From Burkholderiales bacterium (GTDB taxonomy: Bacteria > Pseudomonadota > Gammaproteobacteria > Burkholderiales > SG8-41): a stretch of DNA of 64,000 bases. The stretch lies in assembly GCA_030683105.1 (NCBI GenBank), contig JAUXMZ010000008.1:4268-68267 (forward strand). Reading direction: 5' to 3'. The translations under genes were made by a program, and so were the position numbers. Positions 34,063 through 55,042 of the stretch are shown piece by piece; within the stretch, counting starts at the first letter, position 1, and every line of letters starts with the position of its first letter. The notes below the pieces were generated by a model, which saw only the letters and a program-made list of their open reading frames with translations, ran no database searches and was not told where the DNA came from.

Positions 34063-34330
34063 AGAAGTTGTCTCAAAAACATTTAAAACCTGATGAAACC
34101 GCCGATGGACGCCGATGAATTCTTTTTAATACCTTCTTTTCAACACCCGCTCGACGGGTGCGCTTGACGGGTACGCCGATAAAACCCACCTGGCACGGTG
34201 ACTACGGGTAATAAATCAGATAATAAAAACAAATGCGTTATGTTCAAGGCGCCCTCTGTGGATTTTCGGTTCCGGTAGTCATCGGCGTTCATCGGCGGCT
34301 AATAATTTGGTTTTTGAGACAGGCTCTAGT
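34063..34330. repeat. Composite palindromic intergenic repeat, copy R1 (GCCGATGAAC-armed)
   Basis: Left end AGAAGTTGTCTCAAAAAC...AAAACCTGATGAAACCGCCGATGGACGCCGATGAA. Right end TCATCGGCGTTCATCGGCGGCTAATAATTTGGTTTTTGAGAC. AT-rich core. Nearly collinear with copy R7. Confidence 0.85.
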
Positions 34331-34364
34331 ATTCGTGCATATGCATGGAAGCACATTTGCACCT

Positions 34365-34405
34365 TTCTCCCCTCGGGAGAAGGGCCGGGGATGAGGGTTG
34401 CGCAT
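34365..34405. repeat. Isolated hairpin module (TTCTCCCCTCGGGAGAA...GGGGATGAGGG) of the repeat family, just downstream of the nfeD stop
   Basis: Reverse-complement match to the CCCTCATCCCTGACCCTTCTCCC...GGAGAAGGG module seen in copies R2, R4 and R8. Confidence 0.6.
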
Positions 34406-34407
34406 CA

Positions 34408-35874
34408 TCACGGATTATTGCGATGTCCCGCAGTTTGATCCGATTCAGGTTCGACGCTGAGCGTCAGCCCGTCGATAGCGGTGACGCGGATTTTCTGCCC
34501 CCGCGCGAGCGGCACGCGGCTCACGATGCGCCAGTTCTCGCCATGAACCCGCGCCCAGCCTTCGCCCTGCATGTCGTCGAGCACCTCGCCGCGGGCACCG
34601 ATCATATCCTCGCTGCCGCTGACCACAGGCCGCTTGCGCGCCCTGGCCGCCATCGCCACGATGGCGAACACGATCAGCGCGCTGGCCAGCGCCAGGGTCA
34701 CCGTGAAGGACAGCGGCACCGCGTAACCGCCCGCCTGCGGCTCGATCAGGATTACCGAGCCGAAGACCAAAGCGATGGCGCCGCCGATTCCGAGCGCGCC
34801 GAAACTCGGTAAAAACGCTTCGGCTATGATGAACGCCAGCCCCAGCAGTATCAGTCCGAGTCCCGCATAGTTGATCGGCAGCATCTGGAATGCGTACAGC
34901 GCCAGCAGCAGGCAGATCGCGCCGACCACGCCCGGCAGAATAAAGCCCGGGCTCATGAACTCGTAGATCAGGCCGTAAATGCCGATCATCATCAGTATCA
35001 TCGCCAGGCTGGGATCGGCGATCACCGCCAGCAGCCGGCTGCGCCAGTCGGGCTCGATGGCAACCACTGCGGCCCCCTCGGTCTTGAGGGTTCGCTCCAC
35101 GCCCTGTATCGTGACTTTTCTGCCGTGCACCTGCTTGAGCAGATCACTGATGTCGTGCGCGACGATATCGGTCACCTTGAGTTTATGCGCCTCGGCCGCC
35201 GACAGGCTCACCGCTTCGCGCACCGCGCGCTCGCCCCATTCGGCGTTGCGGCCGCGCAATTGCGCCAGGCTGCGGATATAGGCGGCGGCATCGTGTATCT
35301 GTTTCTCAGTCATGGTGCTTTTGGGCGCCGCTCCCGGCTTGGATTCGGCATCTTTTTTATCAGCCTTTTCCTTTCCGTCCTTGAGCTTGTCGTCGCGCGG
35401 CGCCTCCTTGCCGGGTTCGGAGCCGGGCATGATGCCGATCGCCACGGGGGTTGCTGCGCCCAGATTGGTTGCCGGCGCCATCGCCGCAATGTGGCTGGCA
35501 TAAAGGATGTAGGTCCCGGCGCTTGCGGCTCGCGCGCCGCCGGGCGCGACAAAGGTCGCCACCGGTACCGGCGATGCCAGGATCTCCTTGATGATCTTGC
35601 GCATCGCCGTATCGAGACCGCCCGGGGTGTCGATCTTCAGGATCACGAGTTCCGCCCCCTGCTCGGCGGCCTGGCGTATGCCGCGTACCGTGTAGTCTGC
35701 GGTGGCCGGACTCACCGCGCCTTCGAGCGTCAAGACCACTACCGGCGCTGCTTGCGCGGCTTGCCCCGCCGCCCATAACACAATGCCGAGGAACACACCG
35801 ATCCACCCCTCCCGCCTGGACTTGGCAGCAAGGCTTCGGTAAAGATATGGCCACATTGGAATCGGAGCTTTCAT
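34408..35874 (-). CDS. NfeD-family membrane-bound serine protease (long form with ClpP-like domain)
   Basis: 488 aa. Signal/TM, ClpP-class protease domain, about five TM helices, and a C-terminal NfeD beta-barrel (VHGENWRIVS). Upstream of the stomatin gene, as in known NfeD/SPFH pairs. Confidence 0.85.
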   Translation of the reverse strand: MKAPIPMWPYLYRSLAAKSRREGWIGVFLGIVLWAAGQAAQAAPVVVLTLEGAVSPATADYTVRGIRQAAEQGAELVILKIDTPGGLDTAMRKIIKEILASPVPVATFVAPGGARAASAGTYILYASHIAAMAPATNLGAATPVAIGIMPGSEPGKEAPRDDKLKDGKEKADKKDAESKPGAAPKSTMTEKQIHDAAAYIRSLAQLRGRNAEWGERAVREAVSLSAAEAHKLKVTDIVAHDISDLLKQVHGRKVTIQGVERTLKTEGAAVVAIEPDWRSRLLAVIADPSLAMILMMIGIYGLIYEFMSPGFILPGVVGAICLLLALYAFQMLPINYAGLGLILLGLAFIIAEAFLPSFGALGIGGAIALVFGSVILIEPQAGGYAVPLSFTVTLALASALIVFAIVAMAARARKRPVVSGSEDMIGARGEVLDDMQGEGWARVHGENWRIVSRVPLARGQKIRVTAIDGLTLSVEPESDQTAGHRNNP

Positions 35875-35937
35875 GGTTATAGGACAGGGTTTACAGCCAC
35901 AAGTTTCTCCTCATATCACATACTGACCATGCCCGCT

Positions 35938-36272
35938 GCGCTTAGAACCCGTTAGGAAATCAAATAAATTTGCCGCCGATGAACGTCGATAGACGCCGAT
36001 GAAAATCTAAAATTCCAAGTTGTCATTACACCGGGAAAGAATATAACCAACTGTTTTTATTTGTTATTAATGGGCATTAGTGGTAACTGATTATTGAAGT
36101 TGGCTTGATCGGCGTTCGATCCCTCTCTCCCGACCTCTCTCCCAAAGGGAGAGAGGAGGCAATTGTTTCCCTTCTCCTTCCTGGATACCGAAGGGTAGGG
36201 GCTTCATCAGAAGGGTCAGGGATGAGGGCCGGGCGGTTACATTGGTCCTGGTCTTTTTGAAATGCGCTCTTA
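35938..36272. repeat. Composite repeat copy R2 (inverted relative to R4)
   Basis: Contains GCCGATGAAC-type 10-mers (35973-36002), an AT-rich core, and the module CCCTCTCTCCCGACCTCTCTCCCAAAGGGAGAGAGG...GGGTCAGGGATGAGGG...GCGCTCTTAGG. Its terminal TAA is the MscS stop codon. Confidence 0.85.
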
Positions 36273-37163
36273 GGAAACGGGAGGCGTAACGTTTTTGACC
36301 TCGAGAACGCCGCTGCGGATATGCAAATCACGCTGCGGGAACGGAATCTGGATTTTATGCTCCGCGAACTTGTCGTAAATCGCGAAGTTCAAGGCACTGA
36401 TCAGCTTGTTCGGTTTGGTGACGAGGGTCCGGCTCCAGCAGCGCAGTTCAAAACTGAGCGAACTGTCTCCAAAGCCCAGGAAACGCACCGCCGGTTCCGG
36501 CTGGCTGAGCACGTCCACGTTTTCCTTCGCCACTTCGAGCAGCACTTTTTCGACCAGCCGCGCATCGCTGCCATACGCCACACCCACCGGGATCTTGAAG
36601 CGCAGCTTGTCGTCGTTGTATTTCCAGTTGACGACATTTTCAGTTATGAACTTCGAATTTGGCACGATCACGGTGATGTCGTCATTGGTCAGCACCTTGG
36701 TGCTGCGCGCGCCGATTTCCATTACGTCCCCCGAAACGTCACCGACCTCGATGCGGTCACCAACTTTGATCGGCCGCTCGAACATGATGACCAGCCCGCT
36801 GATGAAATTGCCGACGATATTCTGCAGGCCGAAACCGACGCCGATGCCGACCGCGCCGGCCAGCACGTTGAGCGTGGTGAGGTTGATGCCGACGGTCTGA
36901 ATGATCACCACGAAACCGATGATCAGCACTATATAACGCGTGATCGTACCCACCGCATGGCGGGCACCGAGATCGAGACCCGTATTGGTCAGGATACGCT
37001 CGGACAGCCAGTAGCGAATCCAGCCCGCCACATAAAACAGCAACACGACCAGGATCAGCAGGTAGACCAGGGTCCACAGCGTCACCTGGGTCTGCCCGAT
37101 GGAGAAAAGCGGGACGGCGAGAATGTCCTTGATCTTGCCCAGCCACTGCATCAGCGTATCCAT
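36270..37163 (-). CDS. Small-conductance mechanosensitive channel (MscS family)
   Basis: TM helices then an MscS beta-domain (GDRIEVGDVSGDVMEIGARSTKVLTNDD). Start set at MDTLMQWLGK, with AGGAGA 5 nt upstream. The ORF track allows 37205. Confidence 0.85.
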   Translation of the reverse strand: MDTLMQWLGKIKDILAVPLFSIGQTQVTLWTLVYLLILVVLLFYVAGWIRYWLSERILTNTGLDLGARHAVGTITRYIVLIIGFVVIIQTVGINLTTLNVLAGAVGIGVGFGLQNIVGNFISGLVIMFERPIKVGDRIEVGDVSGDVMEIGARSTKVLTNDDITVIVPNSKFITENVVNWKYNDDKLRFKIPVGVAYGSDARLVEKVLLEVAKENVDVLSQPEPAVRFLGFGDSSLSFELRCWSRTLVTKPNKLISALNFAIYDKFAEHKIQIPFPQRDLHIRSGVLEVKNVTPPVS

Positions 37164-37244
37164 GCCTGTCTCCTGTGCCTCCAACCAGCCGCGGACGGCG
37201 CGCACCGCAACGGCGAGAATCGGATATAACTGATTGTTTTGTAA

Positions 37245-38090
37245 TTACTTTTTAAATGACGCCCAGCGCCCGATCAGCGTCTGGTAGGCAGTTGCTGGCT
37301 TATATTCGCGGGCACACTGCGCAGCGGCCAGGAATTCGTGCAGTATCGGTGTGCCGTCGAGCTGACCCGGATTATTCGGGTCATGGAATTCGGGGTGCCA
37401 CTGCAGGCCCACCACGTAGCCGGGACCGCGCCAGCGGATCGCCTCGACGATATTATCCGGCACCGCCAGCGCCTCGACGGCGAAATCGCGCCCAAGATCT
37501 TTCACCGCCTGATGGTGGATGCTGTTGACGCGCACGGTTTGCCGGCCCGGGTAGAGTCGCGCCAACCCGGAGCCTTCAACCAGGGAAATCTCATGATAGT
37601 TCTGGTCATAGGCAGCGACGTTGTGATGCTCCAGCTCATCGCCATGCTGGTGCATGATGTCCTGGTAGAGCGTGCCGCCGTAAGCGACATTGATCAACTG
37701 CAGCCCGCGGCAGATGCCCAGCACCGGTTTTCTGGCAGCAACGAACGCCTGCACCAGGTCCATTTCGTACATGTCGCGTATGCGATCGCCGTCCCATTCT
37801 GTCTTGAGCGACGTCTCGCCGTAAGTGATCGGGCTGATGTCGGCGCCGCCCTGCAGCACCAGCCCGTCCAGCGACGCGACATAATCCGCGACACGAATGT
37901 TGCCGCGGCGCAGCAGCCCGCCGCCCTCGATAGACGGAATCATGAAGACCAGCGCATTGGCCGTCATCAGCCAGTGCGCAATCGACTGCTCCAGATACTG
38001 CAAAGTCTTGCCGCGGAAACCCAGTTCCTGGGGCACCTTGTGCAAAAAACGCGGCGACAATCCGATTTTCAGCGGTTGGGTCATGGCCAT
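37245..38090 (-). CDS. Gamma-glutamyl hydrolase-type class I glutamine amidotransferase (peptidase C26, PuuD-like)
   Basis: 281 aa. Nucleophile elbow GICRGLQLIN and LQWHPE histidine motif. Second in-frame ATG at 38084. Confidence 0.8.
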   Translation of the reverse strand: MAMTQPLKIGLSPRFLHKVPQELGFRGKTLQYLEQSIAHWLMTANALVFMIPSIEGGGLLRRGNIRVADYVASLDGLVLQGGADISPITYGETSLKTEWDGDRIRDMYEMDLVQAFVAARKPVLGICRGLQLINVAYGGTLYQDIMHQHGDELEHHNVAAYDQNYHEISLVEGSGLARLYPGRQTVRVNSIHHQAVKDLGRDFAVEALAVPDNIVEAIRWRGPGYVVGLQWHPEFHDPNNPGQLDGTPILHEFLAAAQCAREYKPATAYQTLIGRWASFKK

Positions 38091-38160
38091 CTACTTAGCC
38101 AACAAAAAATTAACCGGCGGTTTCATCGGTTTTGATCTTTTTGATATGCGCTCTTAGAGT
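38091..38160. repeat. Minimal (~70 bp) derivative of the repeat family, copy R3
   Basis: CTACTTAGCC...TTAACCGGCGGTTTCATCGGTTTTGATCTTTTTGATATGCGCTCTTAGAG. Matches the terminal ~45 nt of R4 plus a GGCTAA-type end. Confidence 0.7.
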
Positions 38161-38167
38161 CCCGATG

Positions 38168-39307: not shown

Positions 39308-40515
39308 TGCTGCTTTTCTTCGTTGGTTTCACCCGCCTGTTTCAACGCAAACTGCACGGCGATCGGGCCGAGCAGTTCCAGGATCAGCACCGCGGAGAGC
39401 ACGATCGCCGAGAGCTTGACGCCGAATTCCGGATACAGATCCGCCGTGCCCTGCACCATGACCAGCGCCGTGCTCGACATCGGCGTGAGCGCGATGCACA
39501 GCAACCCGGCGCTGCCCGCGCGCACGCCGGAAAAATGAGTGAGGCTCAGCACGCCGATCGACTTGCCGGCGAAGCGCGCCAGGATGTAGACCAGCGCCAG
39601 ACCGCCGCCGGCGGCCATCTCGGAGAGCTGCAGACTGGCCCCGCCGATCACGAACAGCACCACGAAGAACAGCTGCCCGACGCGGCCGGTGTCTACCGCC
39701 ATCAGGTCATGGCGCCGGTCGAGATTGCGAACCATCACGCCCAAGGCAAGCAGCGCCAGCAGCACCGACAGCTCGAGCATTCGGGCTGCCCCTACCGTAA
39801 CGGCAACCAGCGCCAGCAACAGCACGAGGTGACGCTCCGCGCTTTTGCACAGCCAGCGCGCCAGCAGCAGCGCAAGCATGCAGGCGGCATAGCCCAGGGC
39901 CAGCGAGCCGGCCAGCATGTACATCGGATGCAGCGCCACCGTGATCCATCCGGCCTGGTATTCGTGGTGGACCCCCGACAGCAGCATGGTCATCAACACG
40001 AAAGCAATCACGCTGTTGATCGCAACCAGGTTGAGCGCGCGTTCGGTGACCTGGCCTTCGGCGCGCAGTTCCTGGGATACCAGCATCACCACGGCCGGCG
40101 AAGTGGAAACGCCGATCGCGGCGGCCACCGCGGCAAATAACGGTTTGACGTCGAAATAAACCAGCGCGAAATACATAAAAGCGAACGACAGCGCGCTTTC
40201 CAGCACGCCGGTAGCCAGCAGCCAGCGGTCTTTTTTAAGCCAGGTGACATCGAGCCGGCGGCCGAGTTCGAACAGAACGAGACCCAGCGCAATATCGACA
40301 AAGATCCTTGCCTCGGCGATCAGTTTATCGTCGAGCAGCCCGGAGCCGCTGGCGCCAAGCAGCATGCCCATCAGCACGTAGCCGGTGATGCGCGGCAAAT
40401 GAAGCAAGCGCTTGACGAGTTCGCCGCCGATCAGACCGGCGAGCAGCAGCAATCCAAACAGCGCAAGCGGGTTGGCGGGAAACGGAAGCTGCGGCAGAAA
40501 ATCGAGATACGTCAT
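39304..40515 (-). CDS. Cation:proton antiporter (CPA2 membrane domain only, no KTN domain)
   Basis: 403 aa with about 12 TM segments. N-terminal LLLAGLIGGELVKRLLHLPRITGYVLMGMLLG is typical of Kef/NapA-type exchangers. Confidence 0.8.
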   Translation of the reverse strand: MTYLDFLPQLPFPANPLALFGLLLLAGLIGGELVKRLLHLPRITGYVLMGMLLGASGSGLLDDKLIAEARIFVDIALGLVLFELGRRLDVTWLKKDRWLLATGVLESALSFAFMYFALVYFDVKPLFAAVAAAIGVSTSPAVVMLVSQELRAEGQVTERALNLVAINSVIAFVLMTMLLSGVHHEYQAGWITVALHPMYMLAGSLALGYAACMLALLLARWLCKSAERHLVLLLALVAVTVGAARMLELSVLLALLALGVMVRNLDRRHDLMAVDTGRVGQLFFVVLFVIGGASLQLSEMAAGGGLALVYILARFAGKSIGVLSLTHFSGVRAGSAGLLCIALTPMSSTALVMVQGTADLYPEFGVKLSAIVLSAVLILELLGPIAVQFALKQAGETNEEKQQ

Positions 40516-40716
40516 AGCGGGCGATCCACGTTGTTCGGCACTTGGGCGTGCCGCCTCCTGTCAACGTCTGCTTGCCGAGCGATGCCTGCGTCGATCCTCG
40601 ATATCAGACGCAAAGCACTGGGCATTATTTGTTAAAGTTATTTTAATCAGACCGCGCATGCAGGAAAAGTTCCCGCCCGGCCGCGATCCACGGCAGCAAT
40701 GGTAAACAGGCACTAG

Positions 40717-41382
40717 TCAGGGCGCAAGAATGATGTGCACGCGATACGGGCCGTGCGCGCCGAGGGTGACAGTCTGTTCGATATCGGCGGTGCGCGAGGG
40801 ACCGGAAATGAAATTGACCGCGCGCGGCAAGTGCTCAAATTCAGCGCGCAGCAGTTCCCAGGCGTCTTCCATGCCGCGCACGATGCGCGTTTTGTGCACA
40901 ACGGCGATATGGGTCTCCGGCAGCAGGCTCACCGCAGCGGGCGTGTGCGGCCCGGAAAGCGTCATCAACGTGCCGGTCTCGGCGATGGCGCAAAAAGCTC
41001 CGGTGATGCCCACCAGGTCGTCACCGCGCGCGTTGCGCGCCTCGACCTCCATCCCGCTGCCCGCCCAGTCGAGGCCGGTGAATTCCTGCCAGCACACGGC
41101 GCGCAGCGGCAGATTATTCTCACGCAGATAGACGGCGGTTGCCGCCGGTATTGCGCTGTCCGATCCGATCTCATGCCAGGTGCTGGCAAGATCCAGGGCG
41201 CGCTCGCGAAAGCGCGTGACCAGCTCCCCGTCAGATGCGGGACGCGGGCTCTGCGGGTGCGCGCGAATATGCGCGCGCACGGCTTCGCGCTCCGCATCAT
41301 CCGGCACGCCGCTTCTGCCTTGCGCCGCACGAATGCGCGAAAGAATCGCCTTGCGCGCGGCGCTGTTTTCTTCACTCTTCAC
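40717..41382 (-). CDS. lutC: Lactate utilization protein C (LUD domain)
   Basis: 221 aa, LutC/YkgG-like. GTG start lies inside a heptamer repeat. Confidence 0.75.
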   Translation of the reverse strand: MKSEENSAARKAILSRIRAAQGRSGVPDDAEREAVRAHIRAHPQSPRPASDGELVTRFRERALDLASTWHEIGSDSAIPAATAVYLRENNLPLRAVCWQEFTGLDWAGSGMEVEARNARGDDLVGITGAFCAIAETGTLMTLSGPHTPAAVSLLPETHIAVVHKTRIVRGMEDAWELLRAEFEHLPRAVNFISGPSRTADIEQTVTLGAHGPYRVHIILAP

Positions 41383-41405
41383 CCTTCACCCTTCACCCTT
41401 CACCC
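41371..41405. repeat. Tandem heptamer TTCACYC x5 spanning the mmsA stop and the lutC start
   Basis: ttcactc ttcaccc ttcaccc ttcaccc ttcaccc. The mmsA TGA (41400-41402) and the lutC GTG (41380-41382) are both repeat units read on the minus strand (GGGTGAA). Confidence 0.9.
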
Positions 41406-42926: not shown

Positions 42927-43248
42927 CTCCTAAGAGCGCATATCAAAAAGATCAAGACCGATGTAACCGCCCGGCCCTCATCCCTGACCCTTCTCCCCTG
43001 GTGGAGAAGGGAAACAATTGCCTCCTCTCTCCCTTTGGGAGAGAGGTCGGGAGAGAGGGATCAAACGCCGATGGATTCACTTTTATACCCGCTCGACGGG
43101 TACGTCGATCGAACCACGTCAAAAGCTTCTGCAGCCAATGATAAATATTAATATATAAAACAACCGGTTATACTCCATCTCCGGGTAATTACAACTTGGA
43201 ATTTTGAATTTTCATCGGCGTTCATCGGCGGCTAATTTTTACTTTGCA
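42927..43248. repeat. Composite repeat copy R4
   Basis: CCTAAGAGCGCATATCAAAAAGATCAAGACCGATGTAACCGCCCGGCCCTCATCCCTGACCC...GGGAGAGAGGTCGGGAGAGAGGGATC, then an ACCCGCTCGACGGGTAC hairpin module, an AT-rich core, and TTCATCGGCGTTCATCGGCGGCTAAT. Confidence 0.85.
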
Positions 43249-44660: not shown

Positions 44661-44783
44661 AAAAACCTTAAGCCACAGAGGTCACAGAGGATTCTTTTCA
44701 ATACCCGCTTGACGGGTACACAGAGAACGACCCGAATCAGACCACGCACATACTCTGTGATCTCTGTGTTCTCTGTGGCTAAT
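44661..44783. repeat. CACAGAG-armed repeat, copy R5; fills the entire lutA-lutB spacer
   Basis: AAAAACCTTAAGCCACAGAGGTCACAGAGG, then the ACCCGCTTGACGGGTAC module, then CTCTGTGATCTCTGTGTTCTCTGTGGCTAAT. The lutA TAG lies in GGCTAAT, and the lutB ATG abuts the other end. Confidence 0.85.
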
Positions 44784-45513: not shown

Positions 45514-45713
45514 TATTCAAAACCATTATTAGCCACAGAAGATCATTATCCCAGAAAACAGGTAATGGAACCGCTGATGCCGGTCCTGACAAAGGGACGC
45601 AGATCAAAAGCATTTGCCACAGAGAGCACAGAGGTCACAGAGAAAAGGAAAATCTTTCCCGTTTTTTGTTGTTTCTCTGTGTCCTCTGTGACCTCTGTGG
45701 CTAAAAAGGTTTG
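45514..45713. repeat. CACAGAG-armed repeat, copy R6
   Basis: AAAACCATTATTAGCCACAGAAG...GCCACAGAGAGCACAGAGGTCACAGAG...CTCTGTGTCCTCTGTGACCTCTGTGGCTAAAAAGGTTT. Confidence 0.8.
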
Positions 45714-45741
45714 GGGGGGTGGCGGATCTGAATCCCAGGCC

Positions 45742-48684
45742 TCAGCGCTCCCAGGCAGGCGCGCCGCCGGGTTCGATGCCGTATTGCTTCATCGCTTTGG
45801 ACACGGTAGTCCGCGGCACACTGCTTTCATCTGCAAGCGCGCTCAACGCGGCGATGACCACGTGCGCGGCGCTGACCGCGAAGAAATCGCGCAATGCCGC
45901 GCGCGTATCGCTGCGGCCGAAGCCGTCGGTGCCCAACGTCACATAACGGCGCGGCACATAAGGCCGGATCAGGTCCGGCACGGCGCTCACATAATCGCTG
46001 GCGGCGATGACGGGCCCGGCCGTATCTGCAAGGCATTGTCCTACATAGCTCGTACGCGGTTTGGCTGCGGGACTGCGGCGATTGTGGTGCTCGACCGCCA
46101 TGCCGTCGCGCCTGAGTTCGGTGAAACTGGTGACGCTCCACACATCCGCCGCCACGCCCCAATCCTTTTCCAGCATTTCGGCCGCGGCGATGACTTCGCG
46201 CAGGATGGTGCCGCTGCCCAATAGCTGCACGCCCGCCTCCCGCCTCCCGCCTCCCGCCTCCCTATACGGATACATGCCGCGCAGAATGCCTTCGATCACA
46301 TGTTGGCGCGTCTGTGAAGCCTCGCGCGACGAATCTCCCCTCTCCTGCGCATTAGCGTGGGAGAGGCGCGCCGGAGCGTGGAGCAGGGGCCCCTCCTTTG
46401 GGGATGCGACCGCAGAGGTGCGCATAAGCACGCGGGGATCCGGCGCGCTGCATCCCTCTGCGGGGTCGCATCCATCGCCCAAGGCCGACGGAACCTGCTC
46501 CGCCCTCCGCGGGCTCGGGGGAGAGGGCTCGCCGGGCAGTGCCGGATGGACGTAGTTCTCGTTCATCACCGTTATGTAATAGAACGCGTCCTCCTGTTCT
46601 TCCAGCATGCGGCGCATGCCGTCCTGCACGATCACCACCAGCTCATAGCCGAAACACGGATCGTAAGCGCGGCAGGTCGGAATCGTGGACGCGATCAGGT
46701 GGCTCGAGCCATCCTGGTGCTGCAGACCCTCGCCCGAGAGCGTGGTGCGGCCGGCGGTCGCGCCCAGCAAAAAGCCGCGCGAGCGCATATCGGCCGCCGC
46801 CCAGATCAGGTCGCCGATGCGCTGAAAGCCGAAGATCGAATAAAAAATATAGAACGGCAGCATGGGCGTGCCATGCGCCGAGTAGGCGGTCGCCGCCGCG
46901 AGCCACGATGAAATCGCGCCGGCTTCGGTGATGCCCTCCTCGAGTATCTGGCCGTCCTTCGCCTCCTTGTAGTACAGCAGTTCGTCGCGGTCCTCGGGTT
47001 CATAGAGCTGGCCGACCGCGGAGTAGATCGCAACCTGGCGGAACAACGCCTGCATGCCGAAGGTGCGCGCCTCGTCGGCGACGATAGGCACGATGCGCCT
47101 GCCTATGGCCGGATCCTTCAGCAGTTGCGACAGCAGACTGACGAACACCATGGTGGTCGACTGCTGGCGAGCGCCCGAGCCCTGCAGCGTTTTCGTAAAA
47201 CTCGACAGCGCCGGCACTTTCAGTTTCGGCGCCGTAGTCAGGCGCACCGGCAGATGACCGCCCAACGCCTTGCGGCGTGCATGCAGGTACTTGATTTCAG
47301 CACTGCTGTCGTCGGGCTTGTAGAAACGCAGCGCGCACACGTCCTGATCAGACAGCGGCAGCGAGAAGCGGTCACGGAAGGCGATCAGCGCCTCGTCTTC
47401 GAACTTCTTCGCCTGGTGCGAGGTCATTTTGCCCTGCCCCCAGTGCCCCATGCCATAGCCTTTCTTGGTCTGCGCCAGAATCACCGTGGGCTGGCCCTTG
47501 TGGTTCAGCGCGGCATTATAGGCGGAGTAAATCTTGACCGGGTCATGCCCGCCGCGGCGCAGGCGGTCGATGTCCTCGTCCGAGAGATGCGCCACCAGCT
47601 GCTGCAGTTCGGGATACTTGTTGAAGAAATTCTCGCGGTTGAAGCGGCCGTCGGTCGCCGCATACTTCTGGAACTCCCCATCCACCGTCTCGTGCAGGCG
47701 CTCGAGCAACACGCCGTCGTGATCGCGCGCGAACAACGGGTCCCAGTCCGAGCCCCACAACAGCTTGATCACGTTCCAGCCGGCGCCGGCAAACAGCCCT
47801 TCGAGTTCCTGGATCACCGAACTGTTGCCGCGCACCGGGCCGTCCAGCCGCTGCAGATTGCAGTTGACGACGAAAATCAGGTTGTCGAGCCGCTCGCGCG
47901 CCGCGAACGCGAGGCCCGCGAGTGCCTCGGGCTCGTCCATCTCGCCGTCGCCGACGAACGCCCACACTTTGCGGCCCGCAGTCTCAAGGATGCTGCGGTT
48001 TTCGAGATAGCGCATGAAACGCGCCTGATAGATCGCGTTGATCGGACCCAGCCCCATGGAGGCGCACGCAAACTGCCAGAAGTCCGGCAGCAGCCACGGA
48101 TGCGGATAGGAGCTCAACCCCCTGCCGCCGGTCTCGCGCCGGTAGTGGGCGAGATGCGCCTCGTCCAGCCTGCCTTCGAGAAACGCTCGCGCGTAGACGC
48201 CGGTCGCCGCGTGCGGCTGGAAATAGATCACGTCCCCGCCGCGCTCGGCGGCACGGTCACCATGCGCCGCGCGGAAAAAATGATTGAAGCCGACTTCAAA
48301 CAGATCAGCGATCGACGCGTAGGTGGCAATATGCCCGCCCAGATCGGGATGCTCACGGTTGGCGCGCGCCACCATGGCCAGCGCATTCCAGCGCACCAGC
48401 GCGATCAGCCGCGCTTCAAGGTCGGCATTGCCGGGAAACTGCGGCTGGTCTTCGAGTGAAACGGTGTTGCGGTACGGCGTATTGACCACCGAAGGCAGCG
48501 GCACGCGCTGCTGGCGCGCGTGATCGAGCAGCCGCTTCAACACGAAGGTGGCGCGCTCGCGGCCTTCACTCTCGACTATGGCATCGAGCGCGTCCAGCCA
48601 CTCGCGGGTTTCGATGGGATCGGGATCGGCGGCGCGCGAGGCCGGCTCCCTCGGGGTCTGCTGATATTGCGACATATCGGTCAT
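45742..48684 (-). CDS. aceE: Pyruvate dehydrogenase E1 component (homodimeric AceE type) carrying a ~72-aa in-frame insertion
   Basis: Collinear with my recollection of E. coli AceE (DPIETREWL..., GTDGFGRSD...) except for the insert. Start set at MTDMSQYQ. The ORF-track ATG at 48705 directly abuts repeat R7. Confidence 0.9.
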   Translation of the reverse strand: MTDMSQYQQTPREPASRAADPDPIETREWLDALDAIVESEGRERATFVLKRLLDHARQQRVPLPSVVNTPYRNTVSLEDQPQFPGNADLEARLIALVRWNALAMVARANREHPDLGGHIATYASIADLFEVGFNHFFRAAHGDRAAERGGDVIYFQPHAATGVYARAFLEGRLDEAHLAHYRRETGGRGLSSYPHPWLLPDFWQFACASMGLGPINAIYQARFMRYLENRSILETAGRKVWAFVGDGEMDEPEALAGLAFAARERLDNLIFVVNCNLQRLDGPVRGNSSVIQELEGLFAGAGWNVIKLLWGSDWDPLFARDHDGVLLERLHETVDGEFQKYAATDGRFNRENFFNKYPELQQLVAHLSDEDIDRLRRGGHDPVKIYSAYNAALNHKGQPTVILAQTKKGYGMGHWGQGKMTSHQAKKFEDEALIAFRDRFSLPLSDQDVCALRFYKPDDSSAEIKYLHARRKALGGHLPVRLTTAPKLKVPALSSFTKTLQGSGARQQSTTMVFVSLLSQLLKDPAIGRRIVPIVADEARTFGMQALFRQVAIYSAVGQLYEPEDRDELLYYKEAKDGQILEEGITEAGAISSWLAAATAYSAHGTPMLPFYIFYSIFGFQRIGDLIWAAADMRSRGFLLGATAGRTTLSGEGLQHQDGSSHLIASTIPTCRAYDPCFGYELVVIVQDGMRRMLEEQEDAFYYITVMNENYVHPALPGEPSPPSPRRAEQVPSALGDGCDPAEGCSAPDPRVLMRTSAVASPKEGPLLHAPARLSHANAQERGDSSREASQTRQHVIEGILRGMYPYREAGGGRREAGVQLLGSGTILREVIAAAEMLEKDWGVAADVWSVTSFTELRRDGMAVEHHNRRSPAAKPRTSYVGQCLADTAGPVIAASDYVSAVPDLIRPYVPRRYVTLGTDGFGRSDTRAALRDFFAVSAAHVVIAALSALADESSVPRTTVSKAMKQYGIEPGGAPAWER
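46234..46261. repeat. Tandem heptamer CGCCTCC x4 inside the aceE coding sequence
   Basis: cgcctcc repeated four times. On the coding strand it encodes REAGGGRREAG in a loop that differs from E. coli AceE. Confidence 0.9.
46311..46526. repeat. Palindrome-rich ~216-nt segment inserted in frame in aceE
   Basis: Nested inverted repeats: TCTCCCCTCTCC/GGGAGAGG, GGATGCGACCGCAGAGG/CCTCTGCGGGGTCGCATCC and GAGCAGG/CCTGCTC. Translates to the low-complexity PSPPSPRRAEQ...SSREASQ, which is absent from E. coli AceE. Confidence 0.7.
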
Positions 48685-48705: not shown

Positions 48706-48915
48706 AGAAGTTGTCTCAACAATATTTAAAACCTAATGAAACCGCCGATAGACGCCGATGAATGCCGATGACCATCAAGACCAAAAAATACACAGCACAG
48801 TTTATAAACATAATGCATTGTTTTATATAATATTTATTGTCTACGGTCACGGTGCCAAGCGGATTTATCGGCGTTCATCGGCGGTTAATGCTTTGGTTTT
48901 TAAGACAGGTTCAAG
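48706..48915. repeat. Composite repeat copy R7 (GCCGATGAAC-armed; core inverted relative to R1)
   Basis: Ends are collinear with R1 (AGAAGTTGTCTCAA...AAAACCTAATGAAACCGCCGATAGACGCCGATGAATGCCGATGA and TTATCGGCGTTCATCGGCGGTTAATGCTTTGGTTTTTAAGAC). The core at 48808-48859 matches the reverse complement of 34191-34245. Confidence 0.85.
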
Positions 48916-50477: not shown

Positions 50478-50488
50478 GGGTAGATTCA

Positions 50489-50530
50489 GTGTTGAGTGTT
50501 GAGTGTTGAGTGTTGAGTGTTGAGTGTTGA
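50489..50530. repeat. Tandem heptamer GTGTTGA x6 between greB and the peptidase gene
   Basis: gtgttga repeated six times exactly, 11 nt upstream of the peptidase-like start codon. Confidence 0.95.
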
Positions 50531-50562
50531 GATCGGTCGCTCACGGGCTCGGCACTGGTCTG

Positions 50563-51123
50563 CTACGGAATTATTTTATCCGGAGTCTGGTAGCGCACAC
50601 TGATGATTTCAATTTCCTGCTCGCCTGCCGGTGTGTGCAGGATCACCGTATCCGCTTCTCGCTTGCCGAGCAGCGCCCGCGCAATCGGCGATACCCAGCT
50701 GACGTGGCCGCGGCCGGTGTCGACCTCGTCGGTGCCGACGATGGTGACCGTATGCTCCTCTCCCGCACCATCGGCCCAGGTCACGGTCGCGCCGAAATAG
50801 ACCCGGTCGCTCTCGCCCTGTGCCGCAGGATCGACCACCACCGCAAGCTCCAGACGCTTGCCCAGAAAATGTATCCGGCGATCGATTTCACGCAGGCGTT
50901 TCTTGCCGTAAATATAGTCGCCGTTCTCCGAGCGGTCGCCGTTGGACGCCGCCCACGAAATCACCTTGACCAATTCCGGGCGCTCGACATTGAGCAGATG
51001 CGTGAGTTCATGCTTGAGCCGCGCATGGCCGGTCGGGGTGATGTAATTTTTATCCCTGGCAGCCGGCGGCTCGTGCAACTTGGCCTTGCCAGTTGAAACC
51101 ACGCCTGATCTTGCTCGAGTCAC
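50563..51123 (-). CDS. greB: Transcription elongation factor GreB
   Basis: NYITPTGHARLKHELTHLL...GDRSENGDYIYGKKRLREIDRRIHFL matches the Gre coiled-coil and acidic tip. About 25-aa N-terminal extension. Confidence 0.85.
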   Translation of the reverse strand: MTRARSGVVSTGKAKLHEPPAARDKNYITPTGHARLKHELTHLLNVERPELVKVISWAASNGDRSENGDYIYGKKRLREIDRRIHFLGKRLELAVVVDPAAQGESDRVYFGATVTWADGAGEEHTVTIVGTDEVDTGRGHVSWVSPIARALLGKREADTVILHTPAGEQEIEIISVRYQTPDKIIP

Positions 51124-51267
51124 AGTCCTTATATTCCTTTATAATCATATACTTATGTAACGACAACCGCACCGCACTCTGATCGACTACCCCCATTTAT
51201 ACATTGTTGCGGAAAATTTCATCATATAAAATCCAGTCCACAACATAAAGCCTACAACATCCGCTTA

Positions 51268-52035
51268 GTGAAAGAAAAAACAACAAAATCCTCCATCCAG
51301 GTCATCGAACGCATGATGCACCTGCTCGATACGCTCGCCCAGCACAGTGCGCCGGTCAACCTGAAGCAACTCGCGCTCGAGACCGGGCTGCACCCGTCAA
51401 CCGCCCACCGTATTCTGGGCGTGATGGTGGACAACCGGCTGGTCGACCGCATCGAGCCCGGCACCTACCGTCTGGGAATACGACTGCTCGAACTCGGCTC
51501 CCTGGTCAAATCGCGCATCAGCGTGCGCCAGGAGGCCCTGCCCCATATGCAGATTCTGCACCAGTCCCTGGGCGAAACCATCAACCTGTCGGTGCGGCAC
51601 GCCGATGAAATGGTTTACATCGAGCGCACTGCCGCCGGCAGCTCTATGATGCGCGTGGTGCAGATCATAGGCGCCCGCGCCCCGCTGCACATCACCGCTG
51701 TCGGCAAGATATTTCTTGCGATGGACCTGCCGCAAAACATCACCGATTACATCAAACGCACCGGGCTCCCCAGGTTCACCGAGCACTCGCTGACGGATGC
51801 CGCAAGCCTGACTGGCGAACTCGAACGCATCCGCGAACAAGGCTATGCCTGCGACAATGAGGAAGCCGAAAAAGGCGTGTCGTGCATCGGCGCCGGCATC
51901 TACAATGACGAAGGCCGCCTGGTTGCGGGATTATCGGTATCCGCGCCGTCGGACCGGTTGAAAAAGGCGTGGGCGGCACAGGTCAAGCAAACCGCTGAAA
52001 ACATCTCGCATGCGATCGGGTATCGCGGGTGCTGA
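51268..52035 (+). CDS. IclR-family transcriptional regulator
   Basis: 255 aa. N-terminal winged HTH (SIQVIERMMHLLDTLA...LKQLALETGLHPSTAHRIL) and a C-terminal IclR effector domain. GTG start. Confidence 0.85.
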   Translation: MKEKTTKSSIQVIERMMHLLDTLAQHSAPVNLKQLALETGLHPSTAHRILGVMVDNRLVDRIEPGTYRLGIRLLELGSLVKSRISVRQEALPHMQILHQSLGETINLSVRHADEMVYIERTAAGSSMMRVVQIIGARAPLHITAVGKIFLAMDLPQNITDYIKRTGLPRFTEHSLTDAASLTGELERIREQGYACDNEEAEKGVSCIGAGIYNDEGRLVAGLSVSAPSDRLKKAWAAQVKQTAENISHAIGYRGC

Positions 52036-52574
52036 ACGAACATCTCGTCTTTCTCGATCTCGAAACCACCGGCTCCAGCGCCATCCGCGACCGCATCACC
52101 GAAATCGGTATAGTTGAAGTCAGGCAGGGGCGCGTACTCGGTGAGTGGGCTACGCTGGTCAACCCCGGAGTGGATATCCCCCCCATGATCCAGTCCCTGA
52201 CCGGCATCACCGACAAGATGGTGGCGCGCGCACCGCGCTTTTCTGATATCAGCGGCGAACTGCTCAAACGCATCGACGGCAAGCTGCTGGTCGCACACAA
52301 CGCCCGTTTTGACTATGGCTTCCTGCGCAACGAATTCGAGCGCATCGGCATACACTACATCTCGCGCGTGCTGTGCACGGTCAAGCTCTCGCGCCGGCTG
52401 TTCCCCCACCACCAGCGCCACAATCTCGATATCCTGATAGAACGCCATGGCATCACCTGCGATGCGCGACACCGCGCGCTGGGTGACGCACGGGTGCTGT
52501 GGCAGCTCACGCAATGCTGGCACCGCGAACTGGATGCCGCCACCATCGCCAGCGCGGCCGAACTCGCCGCTTGA
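52029..52574 (+). CDS. DEDDh 3'-5' exonuclease (DNA polymerase III epsilon-like)
   Basis: Exo motifs FLDLETTG, HNARFDYGFL and HRALGDA. Overlaps the IclR stop by 7 nt. Confidence 0.85.
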   Translation: MLNEHLVFLDLETTGSSAIRDRITEIGIVEVRQGRVLGEWATLVNPGVDIPPMIQSLTGITDKMVARAPRFSDISGELLKRIDGKLLVAHNARFDYGFLRNEFERIGIHYISRVLCTVKLSRRLFPHHQRHNLDILIERHGITCDARHRALGDARVLWQLTQCWHRELDAATIASAAELAA

Positions 52575-52607
52575 CAGCGCACGGCGCCGGGGTTTGCCCC
52601 GGCAAAG

Positions 52608-52934
52608 CCCTAAGAGCACATTTCAAAAAGACCCAGACCGATGTAACCGCCCGGCCCTCATCCCTGACCCTTCTCCCGGAAGGAGAAGGGGAACAATTGC
52701 CTCCTCTCTCCCTTTGGGAGAGAGGTCGGGAGAGAGGGATCGAACGCCGATAAACGCCGATGAAAAAGCAAATAGACAGGATTATCAGGATTTAACAAAA
52801 AACATTATATAAATCATGTAAATATTGTTAATTCTGTCTATAGTTTTCGCTCTTGATCTTATCCGCGTTTATCGGCGTTTATCGGCGTTTATCAGCGGCT
52901 GATTTATTTCATTTTGTTAGAGCTCTAAGGAGAG
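52608..52934. repeat. Composite repeat copy R8
   Basis: CCCTAAGAGCACATTTCAAAAAGACCCAGACCGATGTAACCGCCCGGCCCTCATCCCTGACCC...GGGAGAGAGGTCGGGAGAGAGGGATCGAACGCCGATAAACGCCGATGAA, then an AT-rich core, then four 10-mers (52861-52900), then GTTAGAGCTCTAAGG. Confidence 0.85.
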
Positions 52935-53034
52935 CGTCATCCTGGAACTACCGAAGCAAATTGTCCGCGTTACGCAGCGCCCCGACGGCATCGAACTGTA
53001 TTTCCCGCCGCTGCGCGCACCTGAAGTTGCAGTC

Positions 53035-53511
53035 TTGCTGGGAATGTTCGGCGGCGTATGCATTCTGCTGCCGCTGCTGGCGGTCTCCGCTCTGATGTCG
53101 TCCGGCGGCAGCGTAGCCTACGGGCTGCTGACCATCGCTTTGGCGGGCAGCTTTGTGGCGCCGTTTCCGGTTTTTGGCGCCGTGTTCGTTGCACTCGCCG
53201 TGTACTTGCTGGCCAACTCACTGACAGTCACCGCCAGCCCCGCGGCAATCCGCAGTGTGCGCAGCATATTCGGCATCTGCCTGCGCCGGCGCGAAATCAA
53301 GCGCGAAGATATCGCCGCTATCGAAGACCGGATTGCGGCCAAATATCAGAGCCTGTTCAGCGCCGCACCGCAGTTCCAGCTTATCGCGCGCCACGCCACG
53401 CAGCCCAAATTGAGCGTGGTGGTCGCCGAAAACCTGGCGGGAGAAGCCATGATGGCGCAGGTTCGCGACCTGATCGCCGGCCATGCCGGAGTGGATGTCC
53501 GGCGCGAGTAA
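53035..53511 (+). CDS. Hypothetical two- or three-TM membrane protein; true start may lie upstream at 52939-52942
   Basis: 158-aa ORF from TTG. The same frame is open back to TAG at 52918 and reads ILELPKQIVRVTQRPDGIELYFPPLRAPEVA, preceded by AAGGAG (52927-52932). Confidence 0.55.
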   Translation: MLGMFGGVCILLPLLAVSALMSSGGSVAYGLLTIALAGSFVAPFPVFGAVFVALAVYLLANSLTVTASPAAIRSVRSIFGICLRRREIKREDIAAIEDRIAAKYQSLFSAAPQFQLIARHATQPKLSVVVAENLAGEAMMAQVRDLIAGHAGVDVRRE

Positions 53512-53523
53512 TTAAATGCTTGC

Positions 53524-53629
53524 AACAAGACCAAACACATTAACCACCGATGAATTCTTTTCAATACCTTCTTTTCAACACCCGCTCGACGGGTGCGCTT
53601 GACGGGTACGCCGATATACTGGTCTTGTT
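53524..53629. repeat. Partial repeat copy R9 (hairpin module) between convergent genes
   Basis: 53546-53616 matches 34112-34182 with only a few mismatches (GATGAATTCTTTT.AATACCTTCTTTTCAACACCCGCTCGACGGGTGCGCTTGACGGGTACGCCGAT). Flanked by the 10-bp inverted repeat AACAAGACCA/TGGTCTTGTT. Confidence 0.8.
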
Positions 53630-53644
53630 CTTTCGACCCGCGCG

Positions 53645-53878
53645 TCAGTGATAGACCACCGGCACCGTGAGCAGGACGTCGAAACTGCCGAGAAACTCGT
53701 CGATATGTTCGACGGACGGATCTTCGGCGATCACCGCATTCATCGATTGCGCAAACTTCTCTGCCATGTCTCCGGAAAAGAAGGTGCCGCGCGAGGCCAG
53801 TTTATCGACCAACTCCAGGCCCTGCCCTGCCGCATATTCGGCGACCCAGTAGTTGTCGCTGTTGTAGACTATGTTCAT
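53645..53878 (-). CDS. DUF3567-family small protein
   Basis: 77 aa. MNIVYNSDNYWVAEY...IDEFLGSFDVLLTVPVVYH matches the DUF3567 pattern as I recall it. Confidence 0.7.
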   Translation of the reverse strand: MNIVYNSDNYWVAEYAAGQGLELVDKLASRGTFFSGDMAEKFAQSMNAVIAEDPSVEHIDEFLGSFDVLLTVPVVYH

Positions 53879-53978
53879 ATAAATTTCCGCCTGTATCGAT
53901 TAACGCGCCGCACCCACTTTCGCTGACAGCCTGTTTACGCTGCCGCAATAACGGTTCGCCAAACCAATATGGGGCGGA

Positions 53979-54878
53979 TTACGGGAATATCAAGCGCCGG
54001 CGCAACCGGCTCAGGGCGATTCCGGAAAGGATCAGGATGAGCCCGGTATAGGCATTGACACCGGGCGTCTCGCCCAGCAGCGCCACCCCCAGGAACACGG
54101 CCACGACCGGGACACAGTAATTCACCATCGACATGAAGGTGGGTCCCGCGGAATCGATGAGCTTCAGATAGACCAGCGTCGCTATTGCGGTGGGGCCGAT
54201 CCCGATCCAGATCACGGCCCAGAACGAAGCCGGGCTCGGCGCAAGCTGCCACGGCTGATCGACCACGAGCGCAATCGGCAGACTGATCGCCGCCGCGATG
54301 GTAATGATGGCGGCGGATGCCACCATCACGTTGCCCGCAAGCTTGACGCGCACCAGCACGCTCTGCGCCGCGAAGCACATCGCACCCGCCAGCACCGCCA
54401 GCTGGGCCAGGATGTGACGCCCCGATCCGCCCAGCCCGGTCAGCGCTGCCGGCTCCATCAGCACCACGATCCCCACGAACCCCAGCACGAAACCCGCAAC
54501 GCGGTTGCGGGTCATCCGCTCGCCGGTAACGAAAAAATGGGCCAGCACCAGTGTCGTGAGCGGCATGATCGCCATCAGTATCCCCGCGAGCGCGCTGTCT
54601 ATGGCCCGCTGTCCCCACGCGATGAGCATGAACGGCAGCGAATTTCCGACCACGGCGACCGCCGCATACATGAGCCAGATGCGTCCGGGCGGGGGAAAGC
54701 GGTAACCGAGGGCGAGCACCACGGCGACGAGTATCAGCGCGCCGATCACGAGCCGAGCCGCGACCAGCGTCGCCGGCGGCACGGTGGCCACCCCCAGCTT
54801 GATGAACATGAAGTTCGAACCCCACAGCACCACCAGTGCGGCGAGCAGCGCCCAGTCTTTTATCCCACGGTAATTCAT
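53979..54878 (-). CDS. DMT-superfamily transporter (two EamA domains)
   Basis: 299 aa with ten hydrophobic segments and duplicated EamA-like halves. Confidence 0.8.
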   Translation of the reverse strand: MNYRGIKDWALLAALVVLWGSNFMFIKLGVATVPPATLVAARLVIGALILVAVVLALGYRFPPPGRIWLMYAAVAVVGNSLPFMLIAWGQRAIDSALAGILMAIMPLTTLVLAHFFVTGERMTRNRVAGFVLGFVGIVVLMEPAALTGLGGSGRHILAQLAVLAGAMCFAAQSVLVRVKLAGNVMVASAAIITIAAAISLPIALVVDQPWQLAPSPASFWAVIWIGIGPTAIATLVYLKLIDSAGPTFMSMVNYCVPVVAVFLGVALLGETPGVNAYTGLILILSGIALSRLRRRLIFP

Positions 54879-54905
54879 TGTTTTTATATTAATTCAGTAA
54901 TGAAT

Positions 54906-55042
54906 CAAAACCTTTAAGCCACAGAGAACACAGAGAACACAGAGAACACAGAGGAGAACAAACAACGAAATGCGACTCGCACCTGCTTTTTAATACTATT
55001 TTTCATATTTTCTCTGTGATCTCTGTGTTCTCTGTGGCTAAT
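54906..55042. repeat. CACAGAG-armed repeat, copy R10
   Basis: AAAACCTTTAAGCC, then (ACAGAGAAC) x3-4, an AT-rich core, then TCTCTGTGATCTCTGTGTTCTCTGTGGCTAAT. Confidence 0.85.

Follow-up and report, generated by a model that had tools for sequence, protein, structure and literature searches.

What are the palindromes of low GC content that fill one intergenic spacer after another in the genome of an uncultured groundwater Burkholderiales bacterium, and by what route did they come to lie there? The window analysed here is the whole 64,000-nt stretch from position 4,268 to 68,267 of contig JAUXMZ010000008.1 (assembly GCA_030683105.1, lineage SG8-41), a chromosomal segment of 62% GC whose sequence is also found in metagenomes from groundwater, sediment, soil, and caves. 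On it lie Mrp antiporter operons, the genes for SPFH/NfeD and MscS proteins, a lutA-lutB-ALDH-lutC cluster (ALDH, aldehyde dehydrogenase), aceE, greA, a multicopper oxidase gene, and SecDF; genes were called with a simple codon-usage caller, which reproduced the Pfam-supported genes. An initial annotation had listed ten copies of a modular palindromic repeat between 34 and 55 kb (here R1 to R10), and all ten are found where it placed them. They have 39-47% GC, are 106-335 nt long, contain no open reading frame (ORF), and occupy whole spacers between called genes. The list needs some correction: R3 is not a palindromic copy but a collapsed remnant (fold z-score -0.5), R9 is present but holds only a single type A unit (defined below), and related elements at 63695-63790, 41363-41405, 50488-50531, 34360-34397, and 46232-46535 had been overlooked. 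A scan of the spacers agrees that no composite copy lies in the first 34 kb of the window, where AT-rich spacers are present without arrays or palindromes, and none of the ORFs tested between 30 and 57 kb showed a transposase domain, as the annotation had also maintained for the window.

Intergenic short tandem repeats, such as the short tandemly repeated repetitive (STRR), TAACTGA, and GGGNATC arrays, have been known for decades without an established function or means of spread. [quoted passage not shown] Judged from their sequences, they are best read as mosaics like the bacterial interspersed mosaic elements (BIMEs) or BOX elements, as kin to the cyanobacterial STRR heptamer arrays, and as structures that probably act as intercistronic hairpins. 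What is new relative to known classes is the inverted arms of 8-10-nt units, the many dialects of these units, and the very fast turnover; the rest combines known features. The locus is a tractable comparative system, in which conspecific genomes differ at nearly every small spacer and in which insertion, replacement, inversion, and collapse can be read per base; its further assets are one family with clear transposon hallmarks and one decamer common to several phyla.

The elements are repeated, and they are insertion/deletion-polymorphic between conspecific strains. Two relatives were reached through protein cluster members: S2 (GCA_973365745.1, with two independent records, one of them a JGI metagenome), which matches the window at 96.8% identity over 13.7-17.3 kb, and S3 (GCA_942492335.1), which does so at 88%. 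Exact matching of the SPFH and Lrp proteins led to no related strain. The alignment of S2 breaks exactly at R1, R2, the R4 interior, R5, R7, R8, R9, and R10, and S2 lacks or has replaced eight of the ten listed copies. R1 is absent (a spacer of 91 nt in S2 vs 362 nt in the window), as are R2 (67 vs 395 nt), R8 (152 vs 460 nt), R7, and R10; at the site of R9 stands an ordinary terminator with a GC stem and T8. An in-frame insertion in aceE is absent from both S2 and S3. Four other strains have 80 nt in place of 34057-34407, the R1 region, and the 274-nt interior of R4 (TAGCCGCC…GGCGGTTA), which lies between AT repeats, is lacking from S2 as well as from strains X2, X4, and X7, while one related locus, L120 (fetched loci are numbered with the prefix L), has a simpler orthologue of R4. 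Contigs of four metagenomes agree, with R1 replaced and the R4 interior deleted. The read depth points the same way: in the source run it is 156-237 over R4 and R5 and 9-19 over the flanks, a 10-20-fold excess (reads at 97% likeness or more), and other metagenomes have a 20-35-fold excess over the elements.

Other junctions hold a different element, not an empty site. Between lutA and lutB, S2 and L120 have a GCCAAG-type element in place of R5; the units are CACAGAG plus 2 nt in the window, GCCAAGNN in S2, L120, L151, L176, and L136, GCGGATGAAC in L187, and ACCAAGGC in L190. Among the 80 syntenic loci of a metagenome scan with LutA, this spacer is 0-20 nt in distant relatives, in which the stop and start codons overlap, and is filled only in the present lineage. 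Between greA and degP, the window has (CTCAACA)x6 and S2 an ACGAACC array with the hairpin block hp13 (described below), and between ALDH and lutC, GGTGAAG units in the window correspond to a GACGAGA-type palindrome in S2. Some elements are kept: R6 is found in the window, S2, S3, L120, and L122, and the element at 63.7 kb in S2 with one change.

Terminal inverted repeats (TIRs) and flanking repeats of TA or CTAA(G) are present in some copies. A 17-nt TIR, GAAGYTRTCTCRAAAAC, is preceded by TA in R1, R7, L059, and L076, the last two being two other species known from metagenome-assembled genomes (MAGs), and R1, L059, and L076 also have TA after their right end. R1 and R7 have their 60-nt ends in common (88% identity), with different cores, and R9 is 99% identical to R1. 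CTAAG flanks R2, R8, and R3; R2, whose orientation is opposite to that of R4 and R8, lies between direct repeats of it, and AT flanks the R4 interior. The inverted match of the R2 and R8 ends is weak, only about 6 nt (GAGCNC). The flanking repeats are only 2-5 nt long, and the empty sites of S2 have diverged, with CA and not TA at the R1 site.

At the DNA level, the elements rearrange by loop inversion, by collapse of the interior, and by nesting. In the window and S3, the loop of R6 points one way, and in S2, L120, and L122 it points the other way, with collinear flanks; therefore the inverted arms recombine or template-switch repeatedly. At the R3 site, S2 has an intact 283-nt element between the same flanks, and the window has its collapsed form (AACCGCC/GGTTAA). 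The coordinates are collected in the following table.

Table. Repeat elements of the window and related features (window coordinates unless a locus is named; TIR, terminal inverted repeat; SD, Shine-Dalgarno sequence).
Feature	Position	Strand	Description
R1	34064-34326		263 nt, MITE-like; TIRs GAAGTTGTCTCAAAAAC / GTTTTTGAGACAGGCTC; TA at 34062-63 and 34327-28
R1 interior	34100-34118, 34279-34297; 34139-34176		subterminal type A arrays (first two ranges); hp13 (third range); AT-rich core
Small G/C-rich hairpin	34360-34397		CCTTTCTCCCCTCGGGAGAAGGGCCGGGGATGAGGG; short relative of the 145-nt block
R2	35938-36272	-	composite: 145-nt C/G-rich double-hairpin block, type A arrays, AT-rich core
R3	38091-38160	-	collapsed remnant; only the two outer frames left (…GATGAAACCGCC/GGTTAATTTTTT…)
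Gene-gain sites	40474-40723; L211 14682-20304; L213 10748-15059		
Single array	41363-41405		(CTTCACC)x5, between ALDH and lutC
R4	42927-43248	+	composite; outer piece CTAAGAGCGCAT…GACCGAT holds the ALDH SD (AGGAG)
R4 interior	42963-43236		274 nt; bounded by GTAACCGCC…GGCGGCTAAT
R5	44661-44783	-	type B (CACAGAG+2) palindrome with hp13, between lutA and lutB
R6	45514-45741	-	outer type B frame pair AAAACCATTATTAGCC … GGCTAAAAAGGTTTG around inner palindrome 45612-45706
R6 loop	45612-45706; L211 9795-9915; L213 9810-9930; L120 3095-3215; L122 290-400		
aceE in-frame insertion	46232-46535	-	about 75 aa; short palindromes and (GGAGGCG)x4; aceE, pyruvate dehydrogenase E1
R7	48707-48912		second R1-family copy, in the divergent Lrp/aceE spacer
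Single array	50488-50531		(AGTGTTG)x6.3, upstream of DegP-like gene
R8	52608-52934	+	full composite of R2 type; CTAAG on both sides
R9	53524-53629		perfect 10-bp inverted repeat AACAAGACCA around one type A unit and doubled hp13; between convergent genes
R10	54906-55042	-	type B palindrome; 4 units on one arm, 3 on the other
63.7-kb element	63695-63790		palindrome; arms are an inverted pair of GAAGGGT-type 7-mer arrays

The two arm types that had been recognised at the outset stand well above chance. Type A arms consist of inverted tandem GCCGATGAAC-type 10-mers; the array pattern GCCGATRAACGCCGAT, allowing up to two mismatches, gives 12 two-unit matches in the window vs 0.34 expected, and the matches on the + strand always lie left of those on the - strand. 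Type B arms consist of 9-mers of CACAGAG plus 2 nt, whose pattern CACAGAGNNCACAGAG gives 12 matches vs 0 expected. That the two types belong together in one modular build, as had been proposed, is supported by several observations: their units can be aligned as C[G/A]C[C/A]GA[T/-]GAA; hp13 sits between the units of type A arms (R1, R4, and R9) and of a type B arm (R5); elements of both types use the ends TTAGCC and GGCTAA; a related MAG (L044 2320-2470) has a hybrid arm with type A and then type B units in one element; and one and the same junction has different unit types in close relatives. Between R5 and R10, the right arms have 100% identity. On a viral contig (L206 1840-1990), three different right-arm types stand in a row, each ending with GG(C/T)TAA.

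The outer frame that the annotation had attributed to all copies is significant, but it belongs to only about half of them. The pattern AAAACC-N2-9-TTARCC matches three ends (R1, R6, and R7) vs 0.01 expected, and by eye the frame is seen in R1, R5, R6, R7, and R10, whereas R2, R3, R4, R8, and R9 end otherwise. Nor is a constant backbone supported, because part of the frame is the neighbouring genes' own sequence. In R5, the TAG of the TTAGCC end is the lutA stop codon, the other end, GGCTTAAGGTTTTT, adjoins the lutB ATG, and the "AAAACC" is the reverse complement of the GGTTTT of the Shine-Dalgarno (SD)/start region directly before that ATG.

Two kinds of non-tandem module recur in the interiors. 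The hairpin block ACCCGCT(C/T)GACGGGT is present at all four positions claimed for it (34.15, 43.09, 44.70, and 53.58 kb). This module, hp13 (TTCTTTTCAATACCCGCTTGACGGGTA), lies at 34139, 43081, 44697, and 53574 in the window and has further copies at L105 2791, 2884, and 3777, at L120 2518, and at about L059 3190. Direct arrays of four unrelated unit types enclose it, namely GCCGATGAAC, CACAGAGAA, CGAACCA, and AGGCGGG: its type A hosts are R1, R4, R9, and the element that S2 has at the R3 site, its type B host is R5, and the other two are a CGAACCA array in S2 and an AGGCGGG array within the aceE gene of L120. In that aceE insertion (2400-2560), hp13 stands within the array, with the reading frame of the gene preserved. 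Other MAGs have the variant ACCCCCTTGAGGGGT, in which ACCCG…CGGGT has become ACCCC…GGGGT, a compensatory change of G:C to C:G that keeps the stem. The second module, the C/G-rich block of about 145 nt reported from R2, R4, and R8, is indeed common to these three, with 92-99% identity over 70-80-nt blocks. G-rich/C-rich hairpin modules of the GGGAGAGGG…GGGTGAGGG type are seen at 42975-43060, 52655-52738, 36105-36230, and 34360-34397 of the window, and also beside arrays in several unrelated MAGs (L048, L143, L127, and L154); such motifs are common in the intergenic DNA of many Proteobacteria.

The elements are predicted to fold as long imperfect hairpins, in which one or two unpaired bases break the stem at each unit. 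For R5, R6, R10, and the 63.7-kb element, the calculated energies are -53.1, -52.8, -60.9, and -48.3 kcal/mol (z-scores -5.6, -9, -8.7, and -5.7), for R9 the z-score is -3.2, and all five orthologues of R6 fold (-42 to -52 kcal/mol). The hairpins are stable and are flanked by A- and T-tracts. A simple terminator scan with loops of 3-8 nt, which is blind to long-loop hairpins, called no element. Among the elements with both neighbours called, 81 lie between co-directional, 15 between convergent, and 12 between divergent genes, vs 480, 143, and 186 of the background spacers (p=0.0025); the median distance from a stop codon to the beginning of an element is 20 nt, and that from its end to the next start codon is 41 nt. 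The 5' arm is purine-rich in 90/99 elements, and in 45/53 of those that are not of type A (p=2e-7).

From these features, a common plan and history can be proposed. An element would consist of an outer frame of A- and T-tracts that contains stop codons (TTAGCC … GGCTAA), two inverted arms built of 2-6 tandem units of 7-10 nt, with a purine-rich 5' arm, and a variable interior with a nested hp13, a C/G-rich double hairpin, or an AT-rich core. It may be moved in trans by DDE transposases encoded elsewhere, perhaps IS630- or IS5-like, for which the TA and CTAA(G) flanks are the only hint. The number of units and the mismatch between the arms would then arise by replication slippage among unit variants, with subterminal units expanding, contracting, and losing register. 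Inserted copies would be tolerated and perhaps used, since they may supply stop codons, a hairpin that ends or protects the transcript upstream, and, for the gene that follows, an SD-like end; an intercistronic or bidirectional hairpin role is suggested by the placement, the polarity, the A/T-tract frames, and the terminator at the R9 site of S2. Should the elements act as intercistronic hairpins and come with a stop codon and a ribosome-binding site of their own, they would offer a general route to uncouple and rewire operons.

With respect to stop codons, 74% of the type A units have one after GA (TGA 299, TAA 162, and TAG 34 of 670, all loci). A stop-codon hypothesis for the variable GAT-NN positions was discarded, as the departure from independence is weak. 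With the 10-nt period, three type A units place a stop in every frame of the strand that enters, and the other strand is open until GGCTAA.

Comparison with known systems places the elements among several classes. Like MITEs, they are small, ORF-less, multicopy, intergenic, hairpin-folding, and present or absent between strains; the R1 family has TIRs with TA flanks, loop inversion occurs in both, and R5 is inserted within an operon, between lutA and lutB, without breaking it. Among described examples, the Correia elements of Neisseria are known for TA target duplication, promoters, RNase III sites, and inversion, and Chunjie of Geobacter for operon insertion (PMC10969869). The present elements differ from MITEs in that their arms are 7-10-nt tandem arrays and not a unique TIR, in their many unit dialects, in interiors that are unrelated between copies, and in having no known parent insertion sequence (IS). 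With REP, REPIN, and BIME sequences and the REP-associated tyrosine transposases, RAYTs (PMC3116915, PMC3733652), they have in common the position as extragenic palindromes after genes and the BIME-like mosaics of a few modules, and hp13 is a REP-sized hairpin with a 6-bp stem. REPs, however, are 20-40-nt imperfect palindromes with GTAG or CGTC at one end (PMC3733652), whereas no such tag is conserved at the present stem ends, the arms are tandem arrays of 25-45 nt ending with GGCTAA/TTAGCC, and no RAYT (Y1 transposase) gene is seen in the window.

The likeness to short tandem arrays is closer in some respects. STRR heptamers belong to the intergenic DNA of heterocystous cyanobacteria; STRR hairpins occur between cyanobacterial cistrons such as hupS and hupL, and roles in transcript stability or translational coupling have been proposed for them (PMC2670836). 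TAACTGA arrays are common to Beggiatoaceae, Cyanobacteria, and Bacteroidetes; their transfer is described as being "with no evident mechanism", and their units put stops on one strand and leave the other open (PMC4679880); GGGNATC arrays in Xanthomonas and Nostoc lie between aligned ORFs, near stop codons (PMC4692102). Like these, the present elements have short tandem units in co-directional spacers near stop codons, are depleted between divergent genes, may form intercistronic hairpins, show a patchy spread across phyla, and combine stops on one strand with open reading on the other. STRR-like 7-mer arrays are found at 41363, 50488, and 63695, but the main units are 9-10 nt and the host belongs to the Burkholderiales. 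The units, mostly 8-10 nt, differ from those arrays in forming regular inverted pairs with defined ends, within TIR-bearing and composite elements, and the lineages (Burkholderiales, Acidobacteriota, and Planctomycetota) are not those described so far. The unit sequences themselves presumably differ from STRR1-3. Foldback and CACTA elements also have inverted arms or subterminal regions of short tandem repeats; they are eukaryotic, kilobase-sized, and have known transposases, and serve as an analogy only. BOX elements of Streptococcus pneumoniae and the BrickBuilt MITE of Porphyromonas gingivalis (PMC4596501) resemble the present ones in modularity, in the variable count of an internal tandem module, in nesting, and in promoter-like core hexamers, but their tandem module is central and direct, whereas the present units form two inverted arms. 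The remark that such arm swapping is unusual for MITE/REP families is only half right, as mosaic BIME and BOX elements and heptamer STRR hairpins were already known.

Searches for a named family found nothing that matches. Rfam gave no match in the window at the gathering threshold and only one tRNA in 20 loci, and by E-value only generic miRNA-hairpin look-alikes between 33.9 and 55.2 kb; a literature search with the unit sequences found only unrelated primer and shRNA matches, and a keyword search found no named repeat family with inverted arms of tandem units. A repeat family that already has a name, which the annotation had set as a reason to abandon its view, was thus not met with. The ends, TTAGCC/GGCTAA or TAACC/GGTTAA, do not resemble attC sites, as only an occasional GTTAAAT fits the RYYYAAC…GTTRRRY core, and no integrase was found among the window ORFs tested. 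Two further candidates were rejected. An autonomous element between distant inverted arrays was discarded, the ORFs in between being housekeeping genes, and so was carriage by phages or plasmids: among 2.9 million viral contigs there were 7 matches, 4 of them real arrays (three distinct, as L208 equals L210 over the stretch shown), and R1 had no plasmid match.

Several observations weigh against the reading as mobile palindromes. R5, R6, and R10 have identical arms but unrelated loops, which simple copy-and-paste does not predict. The flanking repeats differ by family (TA, CTAAG, and AT) and are so short that they could partly be chance or belong to the palindrome. The window, about 60 kb of S2, and about 200 fetched loci yielded no cognate transposase or IS with matching ends, and the bare decamer palindromes in Acidobacteriota have neither TIRs nor target site duplications beyond the arrays. 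The fold energy, computed for mini-hairpins built of the arms, is not biased toward the transcribed strand (41 elements sense-favoured vs 39 antisense), and the identity of the decamer across phyla lies beyond what the analysis explains. Selection specific to G:U pairs at the RNA level is rejected, because stability does not favour the sense over the antisense strand.

The decamer is indeed widespread. An exact 18-mer of two decamers occurs in at least 118 stretches of GTDB genomes, and most of the matches, among those listed, are arrays with an inverted partner 10-400 nt away. Decamer arrays are found in Acidobacteriota (Bryobacterales/Solibacter), Planctomycetota, Lentisphaerota, Alpha- and Betaproteobacteria, Desulfobacterota, and FCPU426, in the isolate Nostoc sp. 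LEGE 06077 (L032 1570-1600), and in a MAG labelled "uncultured archaeon" (L119 5680-5744), for which a binning error is possible; other odd labels, such as "Streptomycetaceae", may likewise reflect such errors. A catalogue of the fetched loci based on Tandem Repeats Finder (TRF) holds 109 pairs of inverted arrays, whose units of 7-10 nt are of more than 40 types, such as CGCCAAGA, CACGGAGA, CACAAAGAA, ACAGGATTA, CGTGAAT, AAGGATG, GTGATAA, and AGTGTTG, and one MAG (L076) has up to six of them within 6 kb. It would be a far-reaching but, in our judgement, rather unlikely conclusion that all of these, the GCCGATGAAC decamers with their 40 or more dialects, STRR, and TAACTGA, form one widespread system of short-unit arrays at gene boundaries, which dedicated trans-acting machinery writes, exchanges, or mobilises. 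Such a system, if true, would account both for the cross-phylum spread and for the different units at the same junction in conspecific strains.

Could the elements instead be made in place by the host? They would then be structural spacers of the STRR type, with units amplified by slippage and palindromes formed by local inversion-duplication; they would not be mobile, and their likeness would reflect mutational bias or selection for hairpins. The partnerless single arrays at 41363-41405 and 50488-50531, the freely varying number of units, their more than 40 types, the unrelated loops between identical arms, and the heptamer hairpins of this kind between cyanobacterial genes (PMC2670836) all fit this explanation. 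It does not account for the non-tandem blocks of 70-145 nt, namely the C/G-rich block, the 60-nt ends of R1 and R7, and hp13, which recur at 88-99% identity at unlinked loci, for the R1-type TIR with TA flanks in three different MAG species, or for whole elements that are cleanly present or absent between strains 96.8% identical. We regard it as unlikely.

The view with which the study of this locus began, that the arms are arrays of binding sites for sequence-specific proteins (a transposase, a nucleoid protein, or a regulator), one for each unit type, we hold to be unlikely to the same degree. In 64 type A elements, C1, C3, and G5-A6-T7 are kept, together with A10 in the two outer units, and positions 2, 4, and 8 vary; the invariance of G5-A6-T7 is by construction, because the units were picked out by their GAT. 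At the variable positions, the two arms show no covariation in these elements (0.60 vs a null of 0.58, and 0.55 vs 0.58, the null being arms drawn from different elements); it is therefore the motif that is conserved and not the pairing, which is a point for binding sites, as are the 10-bp period of one helical turn and the retention of the same decamer across phyla. On the other hand, the set was ascertained by the exact 18-mer in one arm, and the units grade from an outer GATGAA to an inner GATAA(G), so a few ancestral variants (outer GATGAA, inner GATAAG) shuffled out of register by slippage explain the variation equally well. No candidate protein was found nearby, and the periods of the dozens of unit types are 7, 8, 9, and 10 nt. 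Arrays for different proteins are not supported, because more than 40 unit types, with up to six in 6 kb of one genome, would require too many cognate proteins.

That dedicated machinery, for example an enzyme acting on hp13-type hairpins or on TTAGCC/GGCTAA ends, writes or exchanges the arrays at gene boundaries, so that they would be a product and not transposon passengers, seems to us quite unlikely. The position of hp13 within direct arrays of four unrelated unit types, one of them inside a coding gene, the compensatory change in its stem, and the three junctions with different unit types between strains 96.8% identical would be in keeping with it, and the spread of TAACTGA across phyla "with no evident mechanism" is an existing puzzle of the same kind (PMC4679880). 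No candidate gene was found, however; nested small repeats (BOX/RUP/SPRITE and BIME), together with allele replacement by homologous recombination, give the same picture; and the evidence is comparative, each pattern being a handful of cases. If such machinery exists, it would be a new kind of mobile system.

Artefacts of assembly or binning have a negligible probability: the source genomes are metagenome-assembled and short-read assemblies break at the elements (a contig ends inside R3), but the same elements appear in independent assemblies of different studies, on array-bearing contigs of up to 7.3 Mb, in two independent S2 records, and in one Nostoc isolate genome, and orthologous copies are conserved across five lineages. 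As a practical matter, the elements do break short-read assemblies and create spurious small ORFs in the annotation of MAGs.

Some minor observations concern promoters and neighbouring genes. Pairs of sigma-70-like hexamers lie in the AT-rich cores of R1, R2, R7, and R8 (34220-34247, 36040-36067, 48829-48858, and 52804-52831); the best, TTAACA-16-TATAAT, is in R8, and those of R1, R2, and R7 face the downstream gene. For the whole region, the count of promoter-like hexamers is 12 vs 6.2±2.9, a weak lead. The aceE insertion resembles the intragenic palindromic elements of Rickettsia. S2 has lost most of the multicopper oxidase gene and the DUF2703 gene by deletion, with only a 56-aa C-terminal remnant left beside EamA (window 54889-57039 vs L211 1041-1416). 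Between lutC and the Na+/H+ exchanger, S2 also has a block of 5.7 kb with genes for trehalose synthesis, for MscS, and for a DUF5752 protein, and in S3 the genes of a TRAP transporter (dctPQM) are an insertion between lutA and lutB; the repeat-bearing spacers are therefore also sites of gene gain.

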